From a virus (lineage: Duplodnaviria > Caudoviricetes), in IMG/VR virus record IMGVR_UViG_3300020045_003629, positions 1 through 32,258 of that record: 32,258 nt of DNA; one strand, 5' to 3'. The position numbers and the translations under genes were made by a program. Shown piece by piece: positions 4,036 through 30,493 of this stretch; positions within the stretch are counted from its first letter, which is position 1; the number at the start of each line of letters is the position of its first letter. Under the pieces are notes generated by a model, which made no database searches, was not told where the DNA came from, and worked only from the letters and a program-made list of their open reading frames with translations.

Positions 4036-4389
4036 GTAAACAATGGTAAACAATAGATTTTTAGCTGTTAACCCGCATGTTTAAAGGCTTTACGGCCAAA
4101 ATGTAAACAAAGTAAACAATAAACAAGGTTTCAAAGAGTTCTACACGTGTATATACGTGTTTTACGCGTTTTATGTATGTATTATGTAAGTATATACTCT
4201 GTTATTATATATTTTTATAATTTATAGTACTTTATTGTTTACATTGTTTACATTAGGGCTTACGCCTTGTCCCTGTTGACTTGGGCACGTAAACAAAGCA
4301 TTGTTTACATTGTTTATTATTGTTTACGTCTGCCTCAAATCTGCCTCAAAACCTCAAAATTGTAAACCAGGTAAACAATCATTGTTTAC
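4036..4389. repeat. Iteron cluster / putative replication origin A
   Basis: GTAAACAA at 4036, 4046, 4103, 4112, 4289, 4371 and TTGTTTAC at 4235, 4244, 4301, 4320, 4382 plus variants, flanking an AT-rich core at ~4170-4234; also CTGCCTCAAA x2 at 4330-4350. Confidence 0.8.
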
Positions 4390-6568: not shown

Positions 6569-6775
6569 TTAAAGTATTACGATTACCACTAACCCTGGAC
6601 CCGAGCGTTTGACTTTTATCTCACAGGCGTGAGTCACTGATACGCCCGCCAAGGTTAACACCTGGCCGTCGTTAAGGCTTTCCGCATTAAAACGGATAAC
6701 TCCCGCCAATTCTCTAAACTTCGCCGTTGGGAAGTTCTTTTTTAAAATCTCTAGTACTGTTAGTAATTTTTGCAT
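6569..6775 (-). CDS. Hypothetical protein
   Basis: 68 aa; shares a 19-nt start region with the 6986..7162 gene. Confidence 0.75.
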   Translation of the reverse strand: MQKLLTVLEILKKNFPTAKFRELAGVIRFNAESLNDGQVLTLAGVSVTHACEIKVKRSGPGLVVIVIL

Positions 6776-6806
6776 TTGATTTACATTTTAAAGTTATTGA
6801 AGTTTA

Positions 6807-6985: not shown

Positions 6986-7162
6986 TTAGTTTTGTAGGGC
7001 TCTTATTTCTCTTTGGATTTTTGTACAGATAGCGCAGTACTTACCCGCTTTTTTGTTTCTGATAATTCTACCCCCTACTTTTTGACTACCTGTGTAATTT
7101 TCTCTAACCGCTTGTAGTCTCTCTAGTCTGTTTTCTAATGTCTGGATTCTTGAATTTTGCAT
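6986..7162 (-). CDS. Small basic hypothetical protein (58 aa, CxxC), not in ORF track
   Basis: MQNSRIQTLENRLERLQAVRENYTGSQKVGGRIIRNKKAGKYCAICTKIQREIRALQN*; first ORF after the promoter at 7209. Confidence 0.75.
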   Translation of the reverse strand: MQNSRIQTLENRLERLQAVRENYTGSQKVGGRIIRNKKAGKYCAICTKIQREIRALQN

Positions 7163-7208
7163 TTGATTTACATATTAAGATAATAACTTCGTTGTTGTTA
7201 TCTGAGTA

Positions 7209-12541: not shown

Positions 12542-14515
12542 TTAGTCTTTTTTATAGTAGGGAGTAGTAAAGCCCTCCGCGGGTGTGCCTAGCCCTTTCG
12601 CCCAAGGCACGGGCTCGCCTAAAATTCTGCACATTTCCGAGTTAACAAATTCCGTTGAGAGGTTCGGTATATCGGCTACGACCTCATCGTGTACGTGCAT
12701 TACAATGTCGAACCCTGCGGCGTCTAATCGCCTCATACCGTCGGCGAGTAGGTCTCTCGCTATGGCTTGTATTATATTTTCGGAGAGCTTACCGCCGTAA
12801 GTGTCTGTCCAACCCCACTGCCCCGTTATTTGGTTTTTACCTTTGTACTTTATGCTCTCCTTATCCCACTTATTTTTAGACAAAACGGGGTCGCGATATA
12901 TCAGTTTACGTCCTGCTGGTAATTGAATTGTGAGGCACTTGTGCTCATACCGAAAAACTATACCTTTCAGTTTGGAGATTATAGGTGTTCGGGTTTTCAG
13001 CGCAGTAAGCGCGCACCTCTCAAACTCGTACCACATTTTAACTATCTCGGGCGAAGCCCTGCGCCAAAGCATGACTATATCTTTCATTAGGCCCTCAGAC
13101 AAGCCCATCGCCTCGCCGCCCATCGTTTTAAGTGCTCCGACTGATCCGCCGAAGCCGAGGGCGAGCTCTGCGATTTTACCCTTATCGCGGTACTCCGAGC
13201 CTTTGCCTATGCTTTCAATCGGGACGTTAAACATCATTGCGGCCGAAGCCTCGTATATTTTACCATCACCCGCGAAAACGTCAAGCCTCCATTGTTCGCC
13301 TGCGAGCCAAGCGGTTATCCGCCCCTCGATTGCCGAGTAATCCGCAACGGCTAAGATATTGTTTTCTTTTGGGATTAGCGCCGTTCTAATTAACTGGGAT
13401 AGTACTTTCGGTAAATTATCGAAAGTCATTGTAAGCCCCTCGTAATCTCCGGCCTTTACCATGTTTCGCGCCTCGTCTAAGAGTTTCATTTTGTTACGTG
13501 GCAGGTTTTGGAGCTGTACAGCTCTACCCGCCCAACGGCCTGTACGGGATCCTCCGTAAAAGTATAAAAGTCCGTGCGCCGTGTAGTCGTCTAGCGCGTA
13601 ATTAATCATAGCGTTATACTTTTTTGTTGAGGTGCTGGACCCTTGCTGCCTAAGTTTTAGGACCTCAACCGCAGCCCCGCGTTTATGCTCTTTAATCAAT
13701 GAGGTTACAGTATCTTTTGCGAGTGTTGTTATATCTTTTTGCAGGGTAGAACTCAACCACTTTTTAAGCTGTGCGGGACTGTTCGGATTTGCGAGGCCTG
13801 TTATTTCTTTTAGTTGGTCTACTACTTCGAGTTTAAATCGATCGTCGATAAGTATTGCATTTGTTGCCATTTGAACGTCGACGTTAACACCTCGGTCGTT
13901 TATCTTTTGATCTAAAAAGTAGTTAAGTCTTTCAGTCTCGGGAATTTCAAAGCAGGCCAAGCGGTCGAGTAAACCCATTTCCGCCGCAACGTCTTGACGA
14001 CAATAGTCTTTGTACATTTCCCACTTTTCGGGGTTGTGCTTTGGGAGATTGCGAAAACGTCCGCCGTTTGTTTTGGTCGGCTTCACAAGACAGGAGAAGT
14101 ATCGAATTAAGGCTTTACCCTCTGCGCTCTTACCGTCTGCGCCCATATTAAGCGCTTTGGTTGCAGCGTCCAAGGACATAGGCAATCCGCAGTAACCCGC
14201 TTTGACTGCCGAACAGTGCCACTGTTCCACGGGTACGTCGTAACCGATAGCCTTAAAGGCGTTGCGCTCAAAATTTGCATTGTGGGCGTGCTTTTCGACT
14301 GCAGGATCGAGTAGGTCTCTCGCAAAGCGGGTGTTTATCCTTTCACCGTTGGCCAAATCTTTTGTTATTATAAGCCCTTTAACTCCGTTAATCACGTAGC
14401 AGTAGCACAAAATTAGGATTTCAAAGTCGGGGCTCTCAAAATACTTGTAAGAACCGCAGTTCATAATATCAACGCTCGAGAAAGTCTCGACGTCTATGTG
14501 TAATTCAATTGCCAT
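12542..14515 (-). CDS. Family A DNA polymerase with 3'-5' exonuclease (SPO2/APSE-like)
   Basis: Exo I HIDVET, exo II HNANFE, exo III YCRQDV; RTGRWAG..LQNLP; motif A ADYSAIE; motif B RDKGKIAELALGFGG; motif C VHDE. Confidence 0.96.
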   Translation of the reverse strand: MAIELHIDVETFSSVDIMNCGSYKYFESPDFEILILCYCYVINGVKGLIITKDLANGERINTRFARDLLDPAVEKHAHNANFERNAFKAIGYDVPVEQWHCSAVKAGYCGLPMSLDAATKALNMGADGKSAEGKALIRYFSCLVKPTKTNGGRFRNLPKHNPEKWEMYKDYCRQDVAAEMGLLDRLACFEIPETERLNYFLDQKINDRGVNVDVQMATNAILIDDRFKLEVVDQLKEITGLANPNSPAQLKKWLSSTLQKDITTLAKDTVTSLIKEHKRGAAVEVLKLRQQGSSTSTKKYNAMINYALDDYTAHGLLYFYGGSRTGRWAGRAVQLQNLPRNKMKLLDEARNMVKAGDYEGLTMTFDNLPKVLSQLIRTALIPKENNILAVADYSAIEGRITAWLAGEQWRLDVFAGDGKIYEASAAMMFNVPIESIGKGSEYRDKGKIAELALGFGGSVGALKTMGGEAMGLSEGLMKDIVMLWRRASPEIVKMWYEFERCALTALKTRTPIISKLKGIVFRYEHKCLTIQLPAGRKLIYRDPVLSKNKWDKESIKYKGKNQITGQWGWTDTYGGKLSENIIQAIARDLLADGMRRLDAAGFDIVMHVHDEVVADIPNLSTEFVNSEMCRILGEPVPWAKGLGTPAEGFTTPYYKKD

Positions 14516-14546
14516 GATGTTTTACTTTTTAGTGAAAGTTATTTTG

Positions 14547-14627
14547 TGGGTGTGCGGGATTCGAACCCGCGACTATCCGAGTAGCGATTTTTCTACTCAT
14601 ACACGCTGACCTCTGCGCCAAGCACCC
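14547..14627 (-). ncRNA. tRNA-like element (pseudo-tRNA) with aberrant anticodon arm
   Basis: GGGTGCT TG GCGC-AGAGGTCA-GCGT G TATGAGTAG-AAAAATCG-CTACTCGGATA GTC GCGGG-TTCGAAT-CCCGC ACACCC A; canonical D and T arms, bulged acceptor stem, no assignable anticodon, no encoded CCA. Confidence 0.8.
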
Positions 14628-17396: not shown

Positions 17397-17658
17397 TTGT
17401 TTACGCTGTGAGGTCTTGATTTTAAGGGGATTTTGGCTAATATGCTGAAAAACGTAAACAATAAACAATGTGCGCCCAAACTTCCCCACGGGTATAAATG
17501 CGTTTTACGTAATTCTATGTAGTCTTATTACTATATATTTATTATATTTAATATTTTAGGTATATTATTGTTTACTTAGAATATTAGAGGCTTACGCCTT
17601 ACACTTCAAGACTCGACGCGTAAACAATGCTTGTTGCTTTTGGTTTATCTTTGTTTAC
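17397..17658. repeat. Second iteron cluster / origin-like region B, homologous to 4100-4330
   Basis: TTGTTTAC at 17397, 17568, 17651; GTAAACAA at 17454, 17620; AT-rich core; GGCTTACGCCTT shared with region A. Confidence 0.8.
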
Positions 17659-18720: not shown

Positions 18721-18747
18721 ATTTGTGTTTGTTAATTAATTAATTAA

Positions 18748-21675
18748 TTATTCAGCTGTAGAGTATTGAATAGTTACGGTGCCACTTGTAGCGCCTGTAA
18801 CTCCAGTAGTCCTATAGCTAACTAAAAATGAGCTATTGTTTGTAGTGTCAAAAGAGGCTCTTATTGGCTTTTCTCCTGTTGTGCCGTTATCAATTACAAC
18901 CCCGCTGCCTATCGCTATTTTAGCCGTTGAACTGGTTCTATTCACTGGTAAAGTGATTCTAAAAGATGTAGCAGCATTTGCGGAAGTTTCAGTTAAATTA
19001 AACCTAACAGTCAACGTAATTATATTCCCAAAGTTAGTGTAATAACTTGTTTGTCCAGATAGCGAAGAAGTGTTTGCTATATTTGTAACGGCCGGCGTGT
19101 AGCTCCCAGATGTTAAATTAGCGGCCGTTATGTTTCCCGAAAATGTAGCATTTCCATTTCTAAAAATATCTAATAAATTAGTCCCAAACCTTGAAAATCT
19201 AAAAGCTACAGTTGTTAATGTAGAAAAATCAGTGTTATCGTTCTCTCTTACGTTAAATATCATATCTGGACTAGCATTCGCATCATTTGCAGCGGATATA
19301 AAGGTAAGTCCTGTGGAGTCATTGGACTTACCAACTAATGTAGGGATCCCAAGACTACTACTTCCGTTCCCGAAATCGAAAGACCCATTAAATTGACTGG
19401 GGATATTTAAAGTCGCTGTAAATCCAGTGTTTACACTTAATTTTTTAATAACACTTAACGGTTGCTCATTTGTGTCTGTAAATCCAATAGGCGGGGACCC
19501 TGTCCACTCAGTAGAAGAGAATAGGCAACTAGAAATACCAGTAAAAACACTCGGGGTCGTAGTAAATTTGCAATTTTTAAAGTTTGTGTTTGTGCTTGTC
19601 GTTATAGATATATTTGTAGACCTAATATTACAATTTAAAAACTGGGTGTTGTCCGATCCACTTATATATATATCATTGTTCAATATCTGAACTCCATTAA
19701 ATAATGGTCCGTCCCCAAGATTCACTACATCTACACCTTTGTCTATATTATGATTAATACTACCCCCTGAAATTGTAGAGTGGCCAGGATTCACTCCTGT
19801 CGTGTAGTACATTCCAGTTCTATTTCTCTCAAAAGTAGAATTAGAAAAAGGATTATTTCCACCTATATCATATACACCATACTCTCCCCCATAAGCTTTA
19901 ACATTTGAGAATGAATTATACTCCCCTCTTTCAGCTAAAAAATATCCTATATAGCAAAGCTCTGCGTAGCAATTAGAAATAATTGCATTACCTTCATTAT
20001 TTACGTTTTTGTTAGATGCTATTTTTACTCCAACCCCACCCAGATTATAAAAAGACACGTTTGAAATTCTTATGTTTTTATAAACGGTTACATCTACAAC
20101 ACCTTCAAGATTAACGCCTATTTGCAAAGGTCTTGTGGTAACATAATTAGTTACGGACCCCCTACCGTTACCTTCAAACCTGATGCCTTCTACAACTACG
20201 TCATTAGCTTTTATGTCAAAAATAGGCAGATTAGATGTAGTGCTTATCCTCCCGTTACCAATGATAGTAGTTTTATTAGATATAGTAATTGTCCCGGATG
20301 TATAATAATTACCATTAAGTAATACCATTTTACCTGAATTTATAGCGTTTTGAATGGGCGTTTTATCGTCAGAAATACCGTCGCTGGCGGCTCCAAATTC
20401 TTCTGGAGTTGTATATGTCGATTTTGAATTTAAAGAATTTAGAGCGGCTGTAGCAGTAGACCCTGGAGCATTAGAAAGATTCTGAATAGCTGTCGTGTTT
20501 AAATCGGTTACGTTGGCGGGCGTATACCCTATCGCTGCTACCACATTAGCGTAAGTCAGCGCTACCGACCCATTCCCAACGATATTACCGAATTTGTCTA
20601 CGGGCACGAATTGAGCTGTTCCACCAGCGACCGCACTAGCTAGATTAGTCGTGCCTTGCTGGACTATCAAATAACAACGAAAAACGGCATTATCGGCGAT
20701 GTTTTGTTCGGTTACGAACGGTTGTGTAGGTAACGCTGTAACTGCATCGTTGAAACTATTGTAAATCGTTTGCCCTGGTTGTATTCTTGAAATGCCCGAT
20801 TGAAATAAATTGATACGCTGTATCGTCCATTTATTGGATGGTGTGGCCGTTGAAGTTCCGCCAACATCATAAATGTTTGGGTTAATATTTTGCGTATCGG
20901 CTAATTGATCCCCGTTTTGAAATCTGTACGCAAAAGTTAAAGCGGTTTGTGCGCCTATCGTTAATTTATGCGGTTGAGTGTAATCTGATGCATTAATACC
21001 CATCCCCCAGATGTCGCCTAATGATTTGTTAATTTGTAAATTCGCACCGTTGGCCGAATAAATATTCCCGCTTTCATTCAGAAAGCCAATGGCTTTCATA
21101 AAATCATGCAGTTGATTTCCTATTGCAACTATCGGGGCTTTGATCTCATTTGTAACATTTATCGTCGAGTTGTTCGAGTGTACGACGTTCCCAACAATAG
21201 CCAAAGTTCGCCTTTGTGCGTCCGAGAATGGCGAGGCGCTCGGAACCACGTTGCCGTTAATGTCTAGCGCTATGTAGGTGCTGTTTGCGCTCGCTAGATA
21301 GGCGGGAGTAAGCCCTGTTGCCCCTGGGTAGGTTATAATTTTCACAACTGGTTGGGCTAAGTTGGTAAAATCCGTAACAACGTAGTAGCCCGGCGCAATA
21401 TTATACTTTGTCGGATCTACATTTATTGAAAGTTGTAGCCCTTGCAAAAAGCCTGTTGGTAGATTTAATTTTTTATTCAAAGAATCTCTTACGGGGTATG
21501 AGACGGGTAAATCAGACATGAATCGCCAGTTAACCTCATCGGTTGAACTCTGCACGTTTACTTTTATAGCCGTCGCGTCTTGCGCGTTTTCGGTTATTTT
21601 CAGCTTTTCTGTTTCTTGTTGCCCGTAAATAGTAGAGGCAAAAAGCGCTAATAGTATTAAGATTGTTTTTTTCAT
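18748..21675 (-). CDS. Tailspike/depolymerase-like protein with pectate-lyase-type beta-helix and N-terminal Sec signal peptide (start revised to ATG 21675)
   Basis: TPEEFGAASDGISDDKTPIQNAINSG pectate_lyase_3-type entry motif followed by Asn/Gly/Ile-rich beta-helix rungs; MKKTILILLALFASTIYG-Q N-terminus; the track start at 21768 overlaps the upstream gene. Confidence 0.85.
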   Translation of the reverse strand: MKKTILILLALFASTIYGQQETEKLKITENAQDATAIKVNVQSSTDEVNWRFMSDLPVSYPVRDSLNKKLNLPTGFLQGLQLSINVDPTKYNIAPGYYVVTDFTNLAQPVVKIITYPGATGLTPAYLASANSTYIALDINGNVVPSASPFSDAQRRTLAIVGNVVHSNNSTINVTNEIKAPIVAIGNQLHDFMKAIGFLNESGNIYSANGANLQINKSLGDIWGMGINASDYTQPHKLTIGAQTALTFAYRFQNGDQLADTQNINPNIYDVGGTSTATPSNKWTIQRINLFQSGISRIQPGQTIYNSFNDAVTALPTQPFVTEQNIADNAVFRCYLIVQQGTTNLASAVAGGTAQFVPVDKFGNIVGNGSVALTYANVVAAIGYTPANVTDLNTTAIQNLSNAPGSTATAALNSLNSKSTYTTPEEFGAASDGISDDKTPIQNAINSGKMVLLNGNYYTSGTITISNKTTIIGNGRISTTSNLPIFDIKANDVVVEGIRFEGNGRGSVTNYVTTRPLQIGVNLEGVVDVTVYKNIRISNVSFYNLGGVGVKIASNKNVNNEGNAIISNCYAELCYIGYFLAERGEYNSFSNVKAYGGEYGVYDIGGNNPFSNSTFERNRTGMYYTTGVNPGHSTISGGSINHNIDKGVDVVNLGDGPLFNGVQILNNDIYISGSDNTQFLNCNIRSTNISITTSTNTNFKNCKFTTTPSVFTGISSCLFSSTEWTGSPPIGFTDTNEQPLSVIKKLSVNTGFTATLNIPSQFNGSFDFGNGSSSLGIPTLVGKSNDSTGLTFISAANDANASPDMIFNVRENDNTDFSTLTTVAFRFSRFGTNLLDIFRNGNATFSGNITAANLTSGSYTPAVTNIANTSSLSGQTSYYTNFGNIITLTVRFNLTETSANAATSFRITLPVNRTSSTAKIAIGSGVVIDNGTTGEKPIRASFDTTNNSSFLVSYRTTGVTGATSGTVTIQYSTAE

Positions 21676-26782: not shown

Positions 26783-27295
26783 TTAAATTGGTTCGTACTC
26801 TCTTTCCATGAAGCCTAAAAATATGAGGTCTTCTTTGCTTAAAAAGTTGTCATTCTTTTTTAGAACTTCTAACATACCAGGCTCAACTGTTGTATTTTCT
26901 GCGACCACCCTGTCGGTGATTTCGTCGTGTAATTCTAAAACTTGCAACATTTCTTTTAGGTCGTTAACGATAAGTCTCTCGTCTTTAATGCTAAAGCCCG
27001 AAGAGTGATAGAGGAACCTAGCCCAATCGGTACAAAGTTTTATGTCCCCTAATAAAAATAAAAACATTCCGCACGAGTAGGCGTAGTCTTCTACGTTTGT
27101 TATAATGAAATACCCCTCCGCTTTTTTAGCTGCGATAGCTTGCTCCATTTCTATAAAAACATCGGTGTCTCCTCCGATGCTTTCAATATCTATAAGAACT
27201 ATACAAGGTCCCGTTAAGCTATTTATAAAAGCGTTGAACCTAATTAAAAGATCCTGCGTAAACTCTTCATAAATGTTAAATTCTACTGTGTCCAT
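26783..27295 (-). CDS. ClpP-like prohead protease
   Basis: IESIGGD, AYSCG (catalytic Ser), FLYH (catalytic His), FLSKEDLIFLGF. Confidence 0.85.
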   Translation of the reverse strand: MDTVEFNIYEEFTQDLLIRFNAFINSLTGPCIVLIDIESIGGDTDVFIEMEQAIAAKKAEGYFIITNVEDYAYSCGMFLFLLGDIKLCTDWARFLYHSSGFSIKDERLIVNDLKEMLQVLELHDEITDRVVAENTTVEPGMLEVLKKNDNFLSKEDLIFLGFMEREYEPI

Positions 27296-27525
27296 TTAGG
27301 GCAAATGTTTTCGGGTTCTTTTGCAAATATTTTTGTGGCTAGTGGGCAGGAGCAATGCCCTGTACAAACGTAGCCGTCTATGTCTACCATTACGGCGTTA
27401 AGGATTTCAGTATAAGAGCTTAACTTTTTAGTCGGGCACTCCGCGCAAATGTTAGCACGTCTTTTCTCCTCCTCGCCTACTTTACCTATAATGTTCTGTT
27501 TTAGGGCCTGTAAAAAATCTCTCAT
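27283..27525 (-). CDS. Small Cys-rich putative zinc-binding protein
   Basis: RANICAECP..CTGHCSCPLATK..CPKW. Confidence 0.8.
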   Translation of the reverse strand: MRDFLQALKQNIIGKVGEEEKRRANICAECPTKKLSSYTEILNAVMVDIDGYVCTGHCSCPLATKIFAKEPENICPKWTQ

Positions 27526-27543: not shown

Positions 27544-27674
27544 AAAAAAGCCTTATCCACGTAGAGCGGATAGGGCTTTTTAAATTGGTCTTAGAGATAA
27601 ATGGCTGTGCAGTACATCATCATACTGGGTTAAAGTTGTGGCAAATATAACTATTATTTTTATATATATGCAAC
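27544..27674 (-). ncRNA. Promoter-to-terminator cassette 2 (about 90-nt sRNA or attenuated leader of the head operon)
   Basis: TTG (27673-27671), TATATTTG (27649-27642), hairpin CAGTA/TACTG 27610-27627, terminator GCCCTATCC..GGATAAGGC-TTTTTT 27576-27544. Confidence 0.6.
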
Positions 27675-27684
27675 ACATACGCAT

Positions 27685-27814
27685 AAAAAAAAGCTCGAAC
27701 TTTCGCCCGAGCCTCCCCCTTTCACTAAAAAGTTAATAATTTCCCCAAATCTAATAATCTTTTAATTTCTACTATTCGGCTACAAATATAATAATTTATT
27801 TAATAGCCTTTCAA
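27685..27814 (-). ncRNA. Promoter-to-terminator cassette 1 (about 90-nt candidate antisense sRNA)
   Basis: TTG (27814-27812), TATATTTG (27790-27783), no ORF, terminator GCTCGGGC-GAAA-GTTCGAGC-TTTTTTTT 27712-27685 (probably also ends the tape-measure transcript). Confidence 0.65.
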
Positions 27815-30493
27815 CTAATTGGAATTTATTTTTATATTCTGATTATTTTTAACCTCGTCAAAATCTGATACAACTAGAACAGGCTGACTCGTTGGCGCTA
27901 TGTCTTGTACGGGTGGAGCGTCCACCGTGGCGACCGTTTGCGTTCGCGCAGGGTTTGAGAATACCGCTGCAGGCGTTGACGTTGTGCCACCCGAAGCGCT
28001 CGAGCTTGTGGAACCTCCCCCGCCTCCGTTTTTATCCGTTTTAAGTATATTCTTAACGGCCATAAATCCGGTAGCCGCCGCAGCTGCTACCGCTGGAATT
28101 GCCGCAGGGTACCCAAGCGCTACCCCCGCAGAAATACCCTCATAGGTATTTATTAAAGCCAAACCGACTGCAACCGCTTTACTGTCCCCGAATATAGCAG
28201 ACGCCGTCGCTAAAGAGTCTTTAACCATTCCGACGTTAGTCGCACGTTTGGCCGCCGCAATCTCTTTATCTATTTTCTTTGTGGCCGTAGCGTACTTTTT
28301 GTCTTCTAATTCTTTCAAGACCCTTACCTCTTCGGCGGTCTTCTTTTCATTTGCGAAGTCTTGGTCTAGGGCGAGTTTTTTCTGCTCGGTCTGTAAATCT
28401 AGCGCAGCCTTTTGTATTTCAAGCTCAGAAAGGCCTTTATCCTGTAAGGCCAAAAGCTCTAACTCTGTACGGACGTCAAGCATAGTTTGCGCCTCTTGAC
28501 GTGCCACCTCTTCGGCTTGTTTTTTACTCGCCTTGTAGTTATTTTCGATTATATCTATACTCTCGAGATACCCCTTTTGTATTTCCAACTTAGCGGCGGC
28601 CTTTTCGGAATCCAAAAGTTTAGAGTCTTCGACGCTTTTCTCTTGTACAGATTTTAGAAATGCGGCGTTTGAGAGCTCGTCTAGCATTGCTTGCTCCGAT
28701 AACTTTTTACGGTCTTCGAATTTACTCTTTTGTGCGTCAATCTCTTCGGTTATCGTCTTTTGCGTTAGCTCGAGTATCTCGGTGGACTGCGCTTTCGCCA
28801 AAGTTATAACAGCGAGTTGCGCCTCTTTTTCTGTTATTACGGTTTTAGATCTTTTAAACTCTACAAGAGCGATCTCTTTTTCTGTAATGCTTCGAATAAA
28901 AGCGAGACGCTCCTCGGCGGACTGGTTTAGCTGCGCATTTTTGGCGCGCTCTATAGCTATCTCAGTCTCTTTATTTTTGATCGTGGCCTGTAGCGCTTTT
29001 TCGGCGTCCGTTCTCTGCTTATCTGCGCGCTCTTTGGCTTTGGTTGCTGCGTCGTCCGCGAGTTTGTCCTCGGCGTTTTGCGACTTCTCTAGTCTTTTTG
29101 TCGATTCCGCTTGTATATCGATCTTTCCTAACTCTGCTTTTTTAATGGCCTCCAGTTGGTCCTCGGTAATCTTTCCGGTATTGAGTAAATAGTTCCCGTA
29201 GGCCAAGGTGTTGGCTTTCAAATTGGCTACCTCTTTTTGGGAAAGTTCGCCTTTAATCCTCGCCGCCTCTATAGCATTTTTAAGTTCGGCGTCCGCTAAA
29301 GCTGATCTTTGTTTAAAATTCTGCTCCTCGATCTTTTGGGCTTTATTCAAAAACGCGATACGCTGTTGCTCGGTTAGCGTTCTATTCTTGGACTTAAGTA
29401 TTAACTCGTCGTACTGTTGAGAGGCTTTCGCGTTGGCGACCTCTTGGGACCGTTGCAGGTCTGCGAGTTCTTGCTGAGCTTCTTTTAATTTCGAGGCGGC
29501 GTCGTAGGCCTTTCCCATTCCGCCGATAAGATTACTAAAATCTAAATTGTACACCGCTTTGCCTAGTGCGCTAAACGCTGCAGCTACCCCCGCCGTGATC
29601 TGTTCTATCGCGTCGAGTACAGGATCCAATTTACTTAAGTAACTGATAAGCGCGACGACTAAAATAACGATTGCCCCGATACCCGTGGCGGCTAACGCTG
29701 TGGCAAAACTCCACATAGATACCGTACTCACATCTGTAGCAATTGCGACAACCTCCTGTCCTGCTGCAAGCTCTACGGAGGCGACCGCTTGGGCTTCGGT
29801 AGCCGCGGTCTGGACCGCTTGAGACTCTGCGGCCAATTGCGAAGAGGTCTTAAATCCTAATTGCGCACGCGTGCCCTCGACAAGTTTAGCGGTGTAATCC
29901 GTAACGCCTTTCGCGGCGCCTGTTACACCCTCGCCAAAGCCTCTAACTATTGTACGCGCCTGTTCGCCGTTAACGCCAAACTTTTCTAGAGCTGCGTCTA
30001 CACCAAAAAGCGCCTGTCTATAATTGCCTGATATCGTCGAGGCTTTCTCTTGCGCGCTCGCATTGCTTTTTAGATAGGCGTCGTTTTGATTTATTTTGGC
30101 GTTCAAAAGGTCTAAGGCTTGCGCCCCCTCTTCCGTGGAAGTGTTCACCTGGTCGCGTATAGTTTTTAGCTCCTTCGTTTGGGCTAAGGCTTGCGCCCTG
30201 CTTTTCGCCGACTCGGTGAGCGCTTTATTTTCCTTAAGCTCCGAAAGAGTCAAATCATTAATCGCCGCCGACTGCGCCTTATACTGAGCGTTAAGCTTTT
30301 TAAGCGCCTGCTCATTTTCGACGAACTTTTTAGTTTGCTCACCCGTGGCGTCACCGTTTTTCGTTATGTCTTTCCTTAATTCGGAATTAGATTTCTGTAA
30401 TTCGAATATTTGCTGTTTGGTGTCAGCTATAGACTTATTGGCCTCGGTCTTATCGATCGTAAGGGTCGCTATGTTTATTATCTCTTCGGCCAT
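27815..30493 (-). CDS. Tail tape measure protein
   Basis: 892 aa, Ala/Glu/Lys-rich helical; ALAATGIGAIVILVVALISYL and AVGLALINTYEGI hydrophobic motifs; C-terminal PVLVVSD. Confidence 0.9.
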   Translation of the reverse strand: MAEEIINIATLTIDKTEANKSIADTKQQIFELQKSNSELRKDITKNGDATGEQTKKFVENEQALKKLNAQYKAQSAAINDLTLSELKENKALTESAKSRAQALAQTKELKTIRDQVNTSTEEGAQALDLLNAKINQNDAYLKSNASAQEKASTISGNYRQALFGVDAALEKFGVNGEQARTIVRGFGEGVTGAAKGVTDYTAKLVEGTRAQLGFKTSSQLAAESQAVQTAATEAQAVASVELAAGQEVVAIATDVSTVSMWSFATALAATGIGAIVILVVALISYLSKLDPVLDAIEQITAGVAAAFSALGKAVYNLDFSNLIGGMGKAYDAASKLKEAQQELADLQRSQEVANAKASQQYDELILKSKNRTLTEQQRIAFLNKAQKIEEQNFKQRSALADAELKNAIEAARIKGELSQKEVANLKANTLAYGNYLLNTGKITEDQLEAIKKAELGKIDIQAESTKRLEKSQNAEDKLADDAATKAKERADKQRTDAEKALQATIKNKETEIAIERAKNAQLNQSAEERLAFIRSITEKEIALVEFKRSKTVITEKEAQLAVITLAKAQSTEILELTQKTITEEIDAQKSKFEDRKKLSEQAMLDELSNAAFLKSVQEKSVEDSKLLDSEKAAAKLEIQKGYLESIDIIENNYKASKKQAEEVARQEAQTMLDVRTELELLALQDKGLSELEIQKAALDLQTEQKKLALDQDFANEKKTAEEVRVLKELEDKKYATATKKIDKEIAAAKRATNVGMVKDSLATASAIFGDSKAVAVGLALINTYEGISAGVALGYPAAIPAVAAAAATGFMAVKNILKTDKNGGGGGSTSSSASGGTTSTPAAVFSNPARTQTVATVDAPPVQDIAPTSQPVLVVSDFDEVKNNQNIKINSN

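Follow-up and report, generated by a model that had tools for sequence, protein, structure and literature searches.

A candidate trans-encoded small RNA predicted to repress translation of the phage's own DNA polymerase

The antisense RNAs sar, OOP and aQ act in the choice between lysis and lysogeny and are transcribed opposite their targets. They share with the locus described herein the antisense control of a phage gene by a phage, which in the case of sar blocks translation initiation (PMC12197685, in its available part), whereas our candidate is unlinked to its target and its complementarity is imperfect in relatives; a cis-encoded antisense RNA of the sar/OOP type was rejected, since candidate and target do not overlap and lie 13 kb apart. 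PreS of lambda and VpdS of VP882 are, like the candidate, trans-acting phage sRNAs that bear on phage DNA replication, but according to the same source PreS has a host message, dnaN, as its target, and the two RNAs bind Hfq in Proteobacteria and favour replication, whereas for the candidate we predict repression of a polymerase that the phage itself encodes. The C4 antisense RNA of P1 and P7 also controls a phage gene through pairing of a phage RNA; it targets an antirepressor in the immunity region of temperate phages (PMC8201110, accessible text), whereas the candidate is predicted to target the replicative polymerase 13 kb away. Phage T4 likewise limits its DNA polymerase at translation initiation, although there the effector is the polymerase protein gp43 itself, which binds a hairpin operator (PMC3014915, accessible text), and here the predicted effector is an RNA transcribed elsewhere. 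GibS and FopS of B. thetaiotaomicron (PMC7366714, PMC11697453) resemble the candidate in their Bacteroidota setting (for Bacteroides, PMC7366714 notes the lack of obvious Hfq or ProQ homologues) and in being largely single-stranded RNAs that pair with start codons (in one case through two seed regions) and block translation, features that are predicted here; as described in the accessible parts of these papers, they are encoded on the host chromosome, regulate several metabolic targets and have their seed at the 5′ end, while the candidate is phage-encoded, with a seed next to its terminator and one dominant predicted target. In the main text of the review PMC12197685, as far as available, phage sRNAs act on lysogeny, lysis or host genes and the word “polymerase” does not occur, and a supplementary table holds 38 uncharacterised RNAs that may bear on novelty. 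Our own literature search, largely confined to papers outside subscription, returned no phage sRNA that represses its own DNA polymerase. Against this background, the locus reads as a clade-specific, trans-encoded and essentially single-target phage sRNA that would repress translation of the phage's DNA polymerase, to which we assign a probability of roughly 0.7.

The stretch of DNA that was analysed (the window) is a virus record of 32,258 bases, with nearly all genes on the minus strand. Its replication cluster encodes an exonuclease (DUF2800), a single-strand binding protein (SSB), a family-A polymerase, a virulence-associated-E-type helicase/primase, a nuclease and an SNF2-type helicase, the polymerase ORF thus sitting within an exonuclease-SSB-polymerase-helicase early cluster, and the other genes include terminase, portal, head protease and tape-measure genes. 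The host is probably one of the Bacteroidota, probably of the Flavobacteriaceae, because the polymerase matches Croceibacter phage P2559Y best among isolates (53.6%), the portal C-terminus matches Flavobacterium phages only (8 of 8 records), promoters in the window carry TAnnTTTG boxes, and the translation starts are A-rich and poor in Shine-Dalgarno (SD) sequences; the Bacteroidota promoter consensus and the position of its box at −12 to −5 are given in the available text of PMC9723704. Membership in the C4 family was rejected, since Rfam gave no match in the unit, the best target is a DNA polymerase, and family searches found no antirepressor or integrase family among the ORFs of the window (40 ORFs) or of the complete relative G004 (45 ORFs, the integrase scan covering those of at least 60 aa other than the SSB gene).

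Relatives were found via portal, polymerase, protease and terminase searches, and their contigs were then taken whole. Eight genomes are close (G000, which is the window, G002-G007 and G010), with portal identities of 64-86%. Paired counts use the six in which both the unit and the polymerase start are present (G000, G002-G006), which leaves out G007 and G010, without the polymerase start, and G001, G008, G011 and G012, without the sRNA region. A portal-based scan of genome contigs gave zero relatives, and a metagenome scan at least three further ones (L059, L061, L062) among the matches listed. With a loose pattern for the unit, 3 of the 120 loci listed from 39 of 64 database parts contained it, all of them relatives already known. 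A tight pattern matched nine viral stretches, eight from known relatives and one unrelated, besides 11 genome matches that were all discarded as unrelated promoters (five of them ahead of tRNA genes), and isolated phages gave no similar DNA. Some features of these genomes were recorded in passing. The polymerase ORF of G008 (L010 3001-5274) has 759 aa, ~100 more than its relatives, and its match is split around residues 282-318, where an insertion or repeat is possible. In G004, an ORF of 583 aa (L042 4760-6511, minus strand) lies immediately ahead of the small terminase gene; it has a cysteine motif of the DnaJ type, weakly matches Q-like antiterminators and has no counterpart in the window. 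The window itself holds an exact 19-nt direct repeat (6768-6786 and 7155-7173) over the starts of two small minus-strand genes and, where the tail-fibre gene ends, a self-complementary (TAAT)n run of 18 nt (18732-18750).

The features on which the argument turns are the following.

27815 to 30493, minus strand: tape-measure gene (PHROG 9483), directly upstream of the candidate sRNA unit in 8 of 8 close genomes
27783 to 27814, minus strand: promoter P1, read from the sequence, with a −33-like TTG (27814-27812), a 21-nt AT-rich spacer and the −7 box TATATTTG (27790-27783)
27685 to 27778, minus strand: candidate sRNA of ~94 nt with a U-rich, weakly structured body; predicted start at 27778/27777
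27719 to 27733, minus strand: predicted seed ACUUUUUAGUGAAAG, the complement of the polymerase leader and conserved core in the alignment
27685 to 27712, minus strand: intrinsic terminator T1, an 8-bp stem (two G-U pairs) with GAAA loop and U8, from fold and scan
27544 to 27673, minus strand: P2 unit, with a −7 box (27649-27642), a conserved small hairpin and terminator T2, which precedes the head-gene cluster and served as negative control
14524 to 14538, minus strand: target site CUUUCACUAAAAAGU, −23 to −9 of the polymerase gene, over an A-run at −15 to −11, from exact complementarity
12542 to 14515, minus strand: family-A DNA polymerase gene, 657 aa (PHROG 17 and Pfam DNA_pol_A), the predicted target

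A preliminary description of this DNA had proposed that a consensus promoter and a GAAA-loop terminator enclose about 90 non-coding nucleotides, and this is borne out by the box at 27790-27783, the end of the U8 tract at 27685 and reading frames of only 1-7 codons wholly inside the unit on the minus strand, which also led us to reject a small protein. P1 scored 10 of 12 in a sigma-70 scan and is among only three minus-strand boxes with an AT-rich stretch upstream, and a TA[CT][AC]TTT[GA] box stands at its position in all eight close genomes. T1 was missed by a simple terminator scan and picked up by a second, custom one; it is likely also the 3′ end of the upstream tail-operon message. The fold of the unit has a z-score of −3.2 (1 of 200 shuffles as good), and a search against 4227 Rfam families returned no match at E up to 1. 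Judged by sequence signals, the unit has features expected of a trans-encoded sRNA, namely its own promoter and intrinsic terminator, no ORF of protein length, and a distance of 13.2 kb from a target on the same strand. The seed is partly tied up in weak A-U helices; in the window, opening it costs 3.9 kcal/mol and leaves a net duplex energy of −10.9, and over the genomes the net energies after opening both RNAs range from −8.2 to −17.3 kcal/mol.

The match that drew attention to the locus is exact as described, with positions 27719-27733 of the plus strand forming the reverse complement of minus-strand 14538-14524, i.e., a perfect 15-nt complement at −23 to −9 from the ATG at 14515 and 13 kb away. 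The 15-mer has no further copy in the window within two mismatches and is the only distant exact inverted repeat of at least 15 nt there, longer ones being self-palindromes. Among 5000 dinucleotide-preserving shuffles of the unit, 9 matched one of the window's 39 start regions over at least 15 nt and 102 matched the whole window to that length, while 98 of 200 shuffled windows held some distant inverted 15-mer. By the shuffle test suggested in the preliminary description, the 15-mer on its own is only modestly rare, which is suggestive, not decisive, and the case rests on the relatives. A 13-nt match lying within the ORF at 27420-27432 is retained in G006 alone.

Past the tape-measure gene, all eight close genomes have in turn a −7 box, a U-rich body, a purine block and, at the end, a hairpin with its U-run; the box, which is conserved, lies 60-85 nt ahead of the hairpin. 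Mean column identity in the alignment of the eight homologs is 60%, with a conserved core of roughly TTTTTAGTGAAAGGAGG; the best-conserved block is AAGGAGG or a near variant, which reaches past the duplex with the polymerase leader. The terminator hairpin and its U-run are present in all eight, with stems that differ. A consensus fold recovered the terminator base only, with zero two-sided changes, since the stems misalign. An RNA model built from the eight homologs matched below E 1e-6 only within those eight clade genomes; across 49 sources its single match beyond them had an E of 0.59, and it found no homolog in G011-G022, P2559Y or TCUEAP1. The more distantly related L061, L062 and G014 lack the unit and have a promoter alone between the tape-measure gene and the next ORF, and in G013 this position is taken by an unrelated U-rich unit.

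To rank possible partners, the polymerase start was placed among the 39-50 start regions of each genome using five scorers, which were run on the same data and are not five independent tests. In the order G000, G002, G003, G004, G005, G006, the ranks were 1, 1, 1, 1, 1, 4 with one scorer, 1, 1, 1, 1, 6, 1 with another, 1, 1, 1, 1, 1, 1 with a further one (G005 and G006 being near ties), 1, 1, 1, 1, 5, 1 with the fifth, and 1, 1, 3, 1, 19, 4 (first in 3 of 6) with the strictest, bearing in mind that a U-rich RNA readily pairs with A-rich starts and that several scorers were tried. The mean z-score was −3.3 for the polymerase and −1.1 for the next family, the G005 entry being an internal-ATG fragment (true rank 5). 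In the reverse search, from the polymerase start against non-coding 40-nt windows (489-774 per genome), the unit came first in five of six genomes and third in G005; against all genome windows, coding included, it led in G002 and G004 only, came fourth in G003 and fell below sixth place in G000, G005 and G006. Shuffled sRNA cores reached the observed energy 0, 0, 3, 0, 37 and 1 times per 1000 in G000 and G002-G006, respectively, the pairing in G005 being weak (37 of 1000 shuffles, and rank 19 of 45 under the strictest scorer). The leaders themselves carry a distinguishing tag, since CUUUC occurs at −30 to −10 in every one of the 6 polymerase leaders but in just 1 of the 261 remaining start regions; the leaders of G001 and G008 have CUUUUC, and those of G011 and G012 lack the motif. 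In G002, G003, G004 and G005 the transcribed strands give better pairing than their opposites, an asymmetry that is partly compositional and is missing in G000 and G006. As a negative control, the RNA of the P2 unit showed no preference for the polymerase, which ranked 18-36 of 39-49. The seed is thus complementary to the initiation region of its target beyond chance, if weakly in G005, and the relatives give good support to the predicted pairing in trans at the polymerase start, through synteny, a polymerase-specific seed complement, first or near-first ranks and some two-sided changes. The perfect 15-nt match is particular to the window genome.

Relatives do not keep the perfect 15-mer, as their longest perfect runs (10, 9, 10, 5 and 9 nt) are equalled or beaten by 1-41 other starts; instead, longer bulged duplexes stretch from about −20 to +14..+19, over the AUG, with 34 pairs in G002, 34 in G003 and 29 in G004. 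Those of G005 and G006 are weaker, and the window has little of this second helix. Two-sided changes were seen at seed position 7 (C-G in four genomes, A-U in G002), position 12 (U-A in G004) and position 14 (G-C in the window, A-U in G003), and at the pair with mRNA +7 (U-A in G002; A-U in G003, G004 and G006). The change of the +7 pair in G002 follows its different polymerase N-terminus, which reads MTFKLH instead of MAIELH and whose codons its RNA pairs over ten ungapped positions. When the RNAs were permuted among leaders, 21, 12, 6 and 6 of 720 permutations were as good as the own pairs, and 2 of 21 other gene families used as a control reached an equal or lower count; the second helix alone gave 42 of 720 and is not significant. 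G003 and G006 each have one uncompensated A-C mismatch, and in two scorings the G006 sRNA pairs the window leader as well as or better than its own. The sRNAs of G000 and G006 are nearly identical, which leaves ~5 independent lineages, and the pair tables were fitted. The compensatory changes expected in relatives were therefore found in part, with two-sided changes and own pairs better than foreign ones (6-21 of 720) set against two equal control families and the uncompensated mismatches, and co-variation between RNA and leader is likely but thin.

The plainest alternative takes the unit for a mere tail-operon terminator and 3′ spacer that insulates the next promoter, and the match for a product of U-rich and A-rich composition and inherited coincidence. 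T1 is indeed the first terminator past the tape-measure gene, a GGAGGG stretch can pair with the terminator U-run, three genomes (L061, L062 and G014) have no unit at that place, the 15-mer is only modestly rare genome-wide (102 of 5000) and two control families pass the permutation test; we nevertheless consider a spacer unlikely, since it leaves unexplained the CUUUC tag (6 of 6 vs. 1 of 261), the repeated first rank under composition-preserving shuffles, the changes in G002 that track its altered N-terminus, and the conserved promoter box that stands 60-85 nt upstream of the hairpin. Specificity is also what speaks against an RNA whose U-rich body dampens many A-rich early starts (SSB, the pre-exonuclease gene and others), with the polymerase just the strongest. 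Such breadth would fit the 18-bp duplex formed at the SSB start of G002, the pairing of the RNA 5′ end with the PHROG-408 start in G002, G003 and G005, and the energies in the window of −10.5 at the SSB start and −11.7 at the 6368 start vs. −19.9 kcal/mol at the polymerase, but no other family is consistently high (mean z −1.1 for the next vs. −3.3) and SSB ranks anywhere from 2 to 42, and we regard a multi-target RNA as less probable than a spacer.

The conserved GAAAGGAGG core could alternatively be a decoy for the anti-SD tail of 16S rRNA or the immature 30S subunit, the polymerase match being secondary. This would account for the AAGGAGG-type block being the best conserved and extending beyond the polymerase duplex, and for its complementarity to the CCUCC core (PMC13000453); yet the accessible text of the same paper has the anti-SD tail sequestered in Bacteroidia ribosomes, the predicted fold has the GGAGG part paired at the base of the terminator, the window reads GGGGG here, and the polymerase-specific co-variation would be left without a reason, all of which makes a decoy very improbable. 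Least probable of the four is that both sites are DNA operators for a phage repressor (an imperfect palindrome, TTMACT-N4-AGTDAA) or inversion sites. Both window copies are roughly palindromic and the first early gene (17304-16891) is helix-turn-helix-like by atlas features (score 0.96), but the two copies within a genome are set apart by 1-2-nt insertions in G002, G005 and G006, accept G-U-type changes and run into polymerase codons, the polymerase leader showed no promoter box, the GTAAACA repeat clusters lie elsewhere and at neither site, and gene orientation is identical across close relatives.

Returning to a trans-acting sRNA against the polymerase start, the consequence of pairing depends on how these phages initiate translation. 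The preliminary description had built on Bacteroidota ribosomes initiating from A-rich upstream sequence, and the clade agrees with this: among the start regions of six genomes only 2 of 267 have an SD sequence, and A stands at −13 in 170 and at −12 in 167 of the 267. Initiation in F. johnsoniae is stimulated by adenines at −3, −6, −12 and −13, and reporter output fell by 60-90% when −14 to −11 were replaced (PMC6847099, in the part available). The window duplex covers −23 to −9 and with it the −12/−13 adenines, and the duplexes of relatives also cover the AUG; because of this coverage, repression is the likely sign of the predicted pairing. From the observed sequence, synteny, computed target specificity and some two-sided changes, we infer transcription, pairing in the cell and repression as follows. 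The host RNA polymerase would transcribe the sRNA from a Bacteroidota housekeeping-type promoter, or the sRNA would be the 3′ end of the tail-operon message, its own 3′ end being set in either case by the GAAA-loop terminator. The seed (AGUGAAAG plus a U-run) would bind the polymerase-specific tag CUUUC(A/C) and the A-run at −15 to −11, and a second helix, in several relatives, would carry the duplex on across the AUG and codons 2-5. Pairing would hide the adenines used by SD-less ribosomes and lead to less polymerase, with the SSB and exonuclease genes untouched. Bacteroides lack obvious homologues of Hfq and ProQ (PMC7366714, PMC11697453, accessible text), and the long duplexes may make an RNA chaperone unnecessary.

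As for timing, we tentatively prefer a damping that grows with tail-gene expression, since the unit lies at the 3′ end of the tail operon and the tail message would therefore also contain the seed or set it free, favouring late build-up. A constant dosage set-point is our second choice and rather doubtful; it is allowed by P1, which is housekeeping-like and without GTAAACA repeats. The carrier state raised in the preliminary description may apply, but no observation on these genomes speaks for it. Clusters of GTAAACA/TGTTTAC repeats occupy AT-rich gaps at 4036-4383 (including a 29-nt inverted pair, 4095-4123 and 4231-4259) and 17398-17652 of the window, where they are likely protein-binding sites or an origin. 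The PHROG-408 gene (start 16880, minus strand) and its homologs have a leader with a conserved GATTTAATAATTAAA-like motif, and in G002, G003 and G005 the sRNA 5′ end pairs across the AUG of this gene, which is possibly a second target that was lost in the window genome.

A further element lies between the SSB and polymerase genes, its end 8 nt before the target site.

14547 to 14627, minus strand: tRNA-like cloverleaf that lacks CCA and whose anticodon arm is long and abnormal, from fold and T-arm match
SSB-polymerase gap of other loci: equivalents at L037 12263 and 12524, L040 9099 and 9368, L042 17498, L212 26757 and others

Measured against a canonical tRNA (7-nt anticodon loop, ARAGORN or Rfam call), the window element falls short: ARAGORN at default settings made no call, and in Rfam its T-arm matched the tmRNA model only. 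Nine equivalents in 18 other loci passed the Rfam tRNA cut-off, several with odd anticodon arms, and ARAGORN made calls at this position in G017 and G018. The elements are degenerate, and while they share an invariant T-loop and the lack of a CCA end, the anticodon arm varies. In 20 phage genomes the T-arm pattern gave 22 matches, 21 of them within 800 nt upstream of a polymerase start, such that 15 of the 20 genomes have a match in this interval. We predict that the window element is a processing signal, and its equivalents may be processing signals or tRNA mimics. Given the way tRNAs are processed, a 3′ cut at the element would leave a polymerase leader of ~31 nt, so cleavage would produce a message that starts just before the target. 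On tRNA-like elements ahead of phage polymerase genes our literature search, again largely of papers outside subscription, returned nothing.

The neighbouring P2 unit has a hairpin whose stem changes on both sides among the eight genomes, with a GAUGAU-like loop. A leader peptide was rejected, as the ORF is absent in G003 and G010, and P2 is possibly an attenuator, an antitermination site or a second sRNA. Distant Bacteroidota phages have unrelated U-rich promoter-terminator units.

L201, 8389-8455, plus strand: unrelated U-rich promoter-terminator unit
L214, ~17634, minus strand: unrelated U-rich promoter-terminator unit
L218, ~15865, minus strand: unrelated U-rich promoter-terminator unit
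L213, ~38205, minus strand: unrelated U-rich promoter-terminator unit
L200, 7523-7600, plus strand: unrelated U-rich promoter-terminator unit

In six such units, which were chosen from 11, partly after reverse search, and are leads only, the polymerase ranked 1 (G014 and G018), 3, 6, 20 and 34; the G014 unit forms 12 perfect pairs at −4 to −15 and the G018 unit 11 across the AUG. In P2559Y (L212, NC_023614.1, ~27115-27150, plus strand), 28 pairs of antisense complementarity to the polymerase start are found ~224 nt ahead of it and running in the same direction, possibly a cis switch in a cultured phage, and weaker matches lie upstream of the polymerase start in G022, G014, G005 and G013. As leads only, these suggest that the start of this polymerase is often under antisense control. 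Speculative, and in our view improbable, is a wider extension in which Bacteroidota phages with this polymerase share an all-RNA throttle on replication, made of a tRNA mimic and an unlinked sRNA and repeatedly reinvented. Host tRNA-processing enzymes would cut the mimic between the SSB and polymerase genes and free a short leader, which the unlinked sRNA from the end of the late operon would then seal; reinvention would be represented by the unrelated sRNAs in G014 and G018 and by the antisense copy ~200 nt upstream on the same message in P2559Y.

It is poorly known by what means small phages that encode neither an RNA polymerase nor a sigma factor restrain DNA replication or hold polymerase down within a polycistronic early message. 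The candidate would be a phage RNA directed against the phage's own replicative polymerase, for which the relatives supply natural, putatively compensatory pairs ready for Flavobacterium reporters, and since P2559Y is cultured, the putative cis version is directly testable there. If true, our reading would show antisense control where ribosomes disregard SD sequences.
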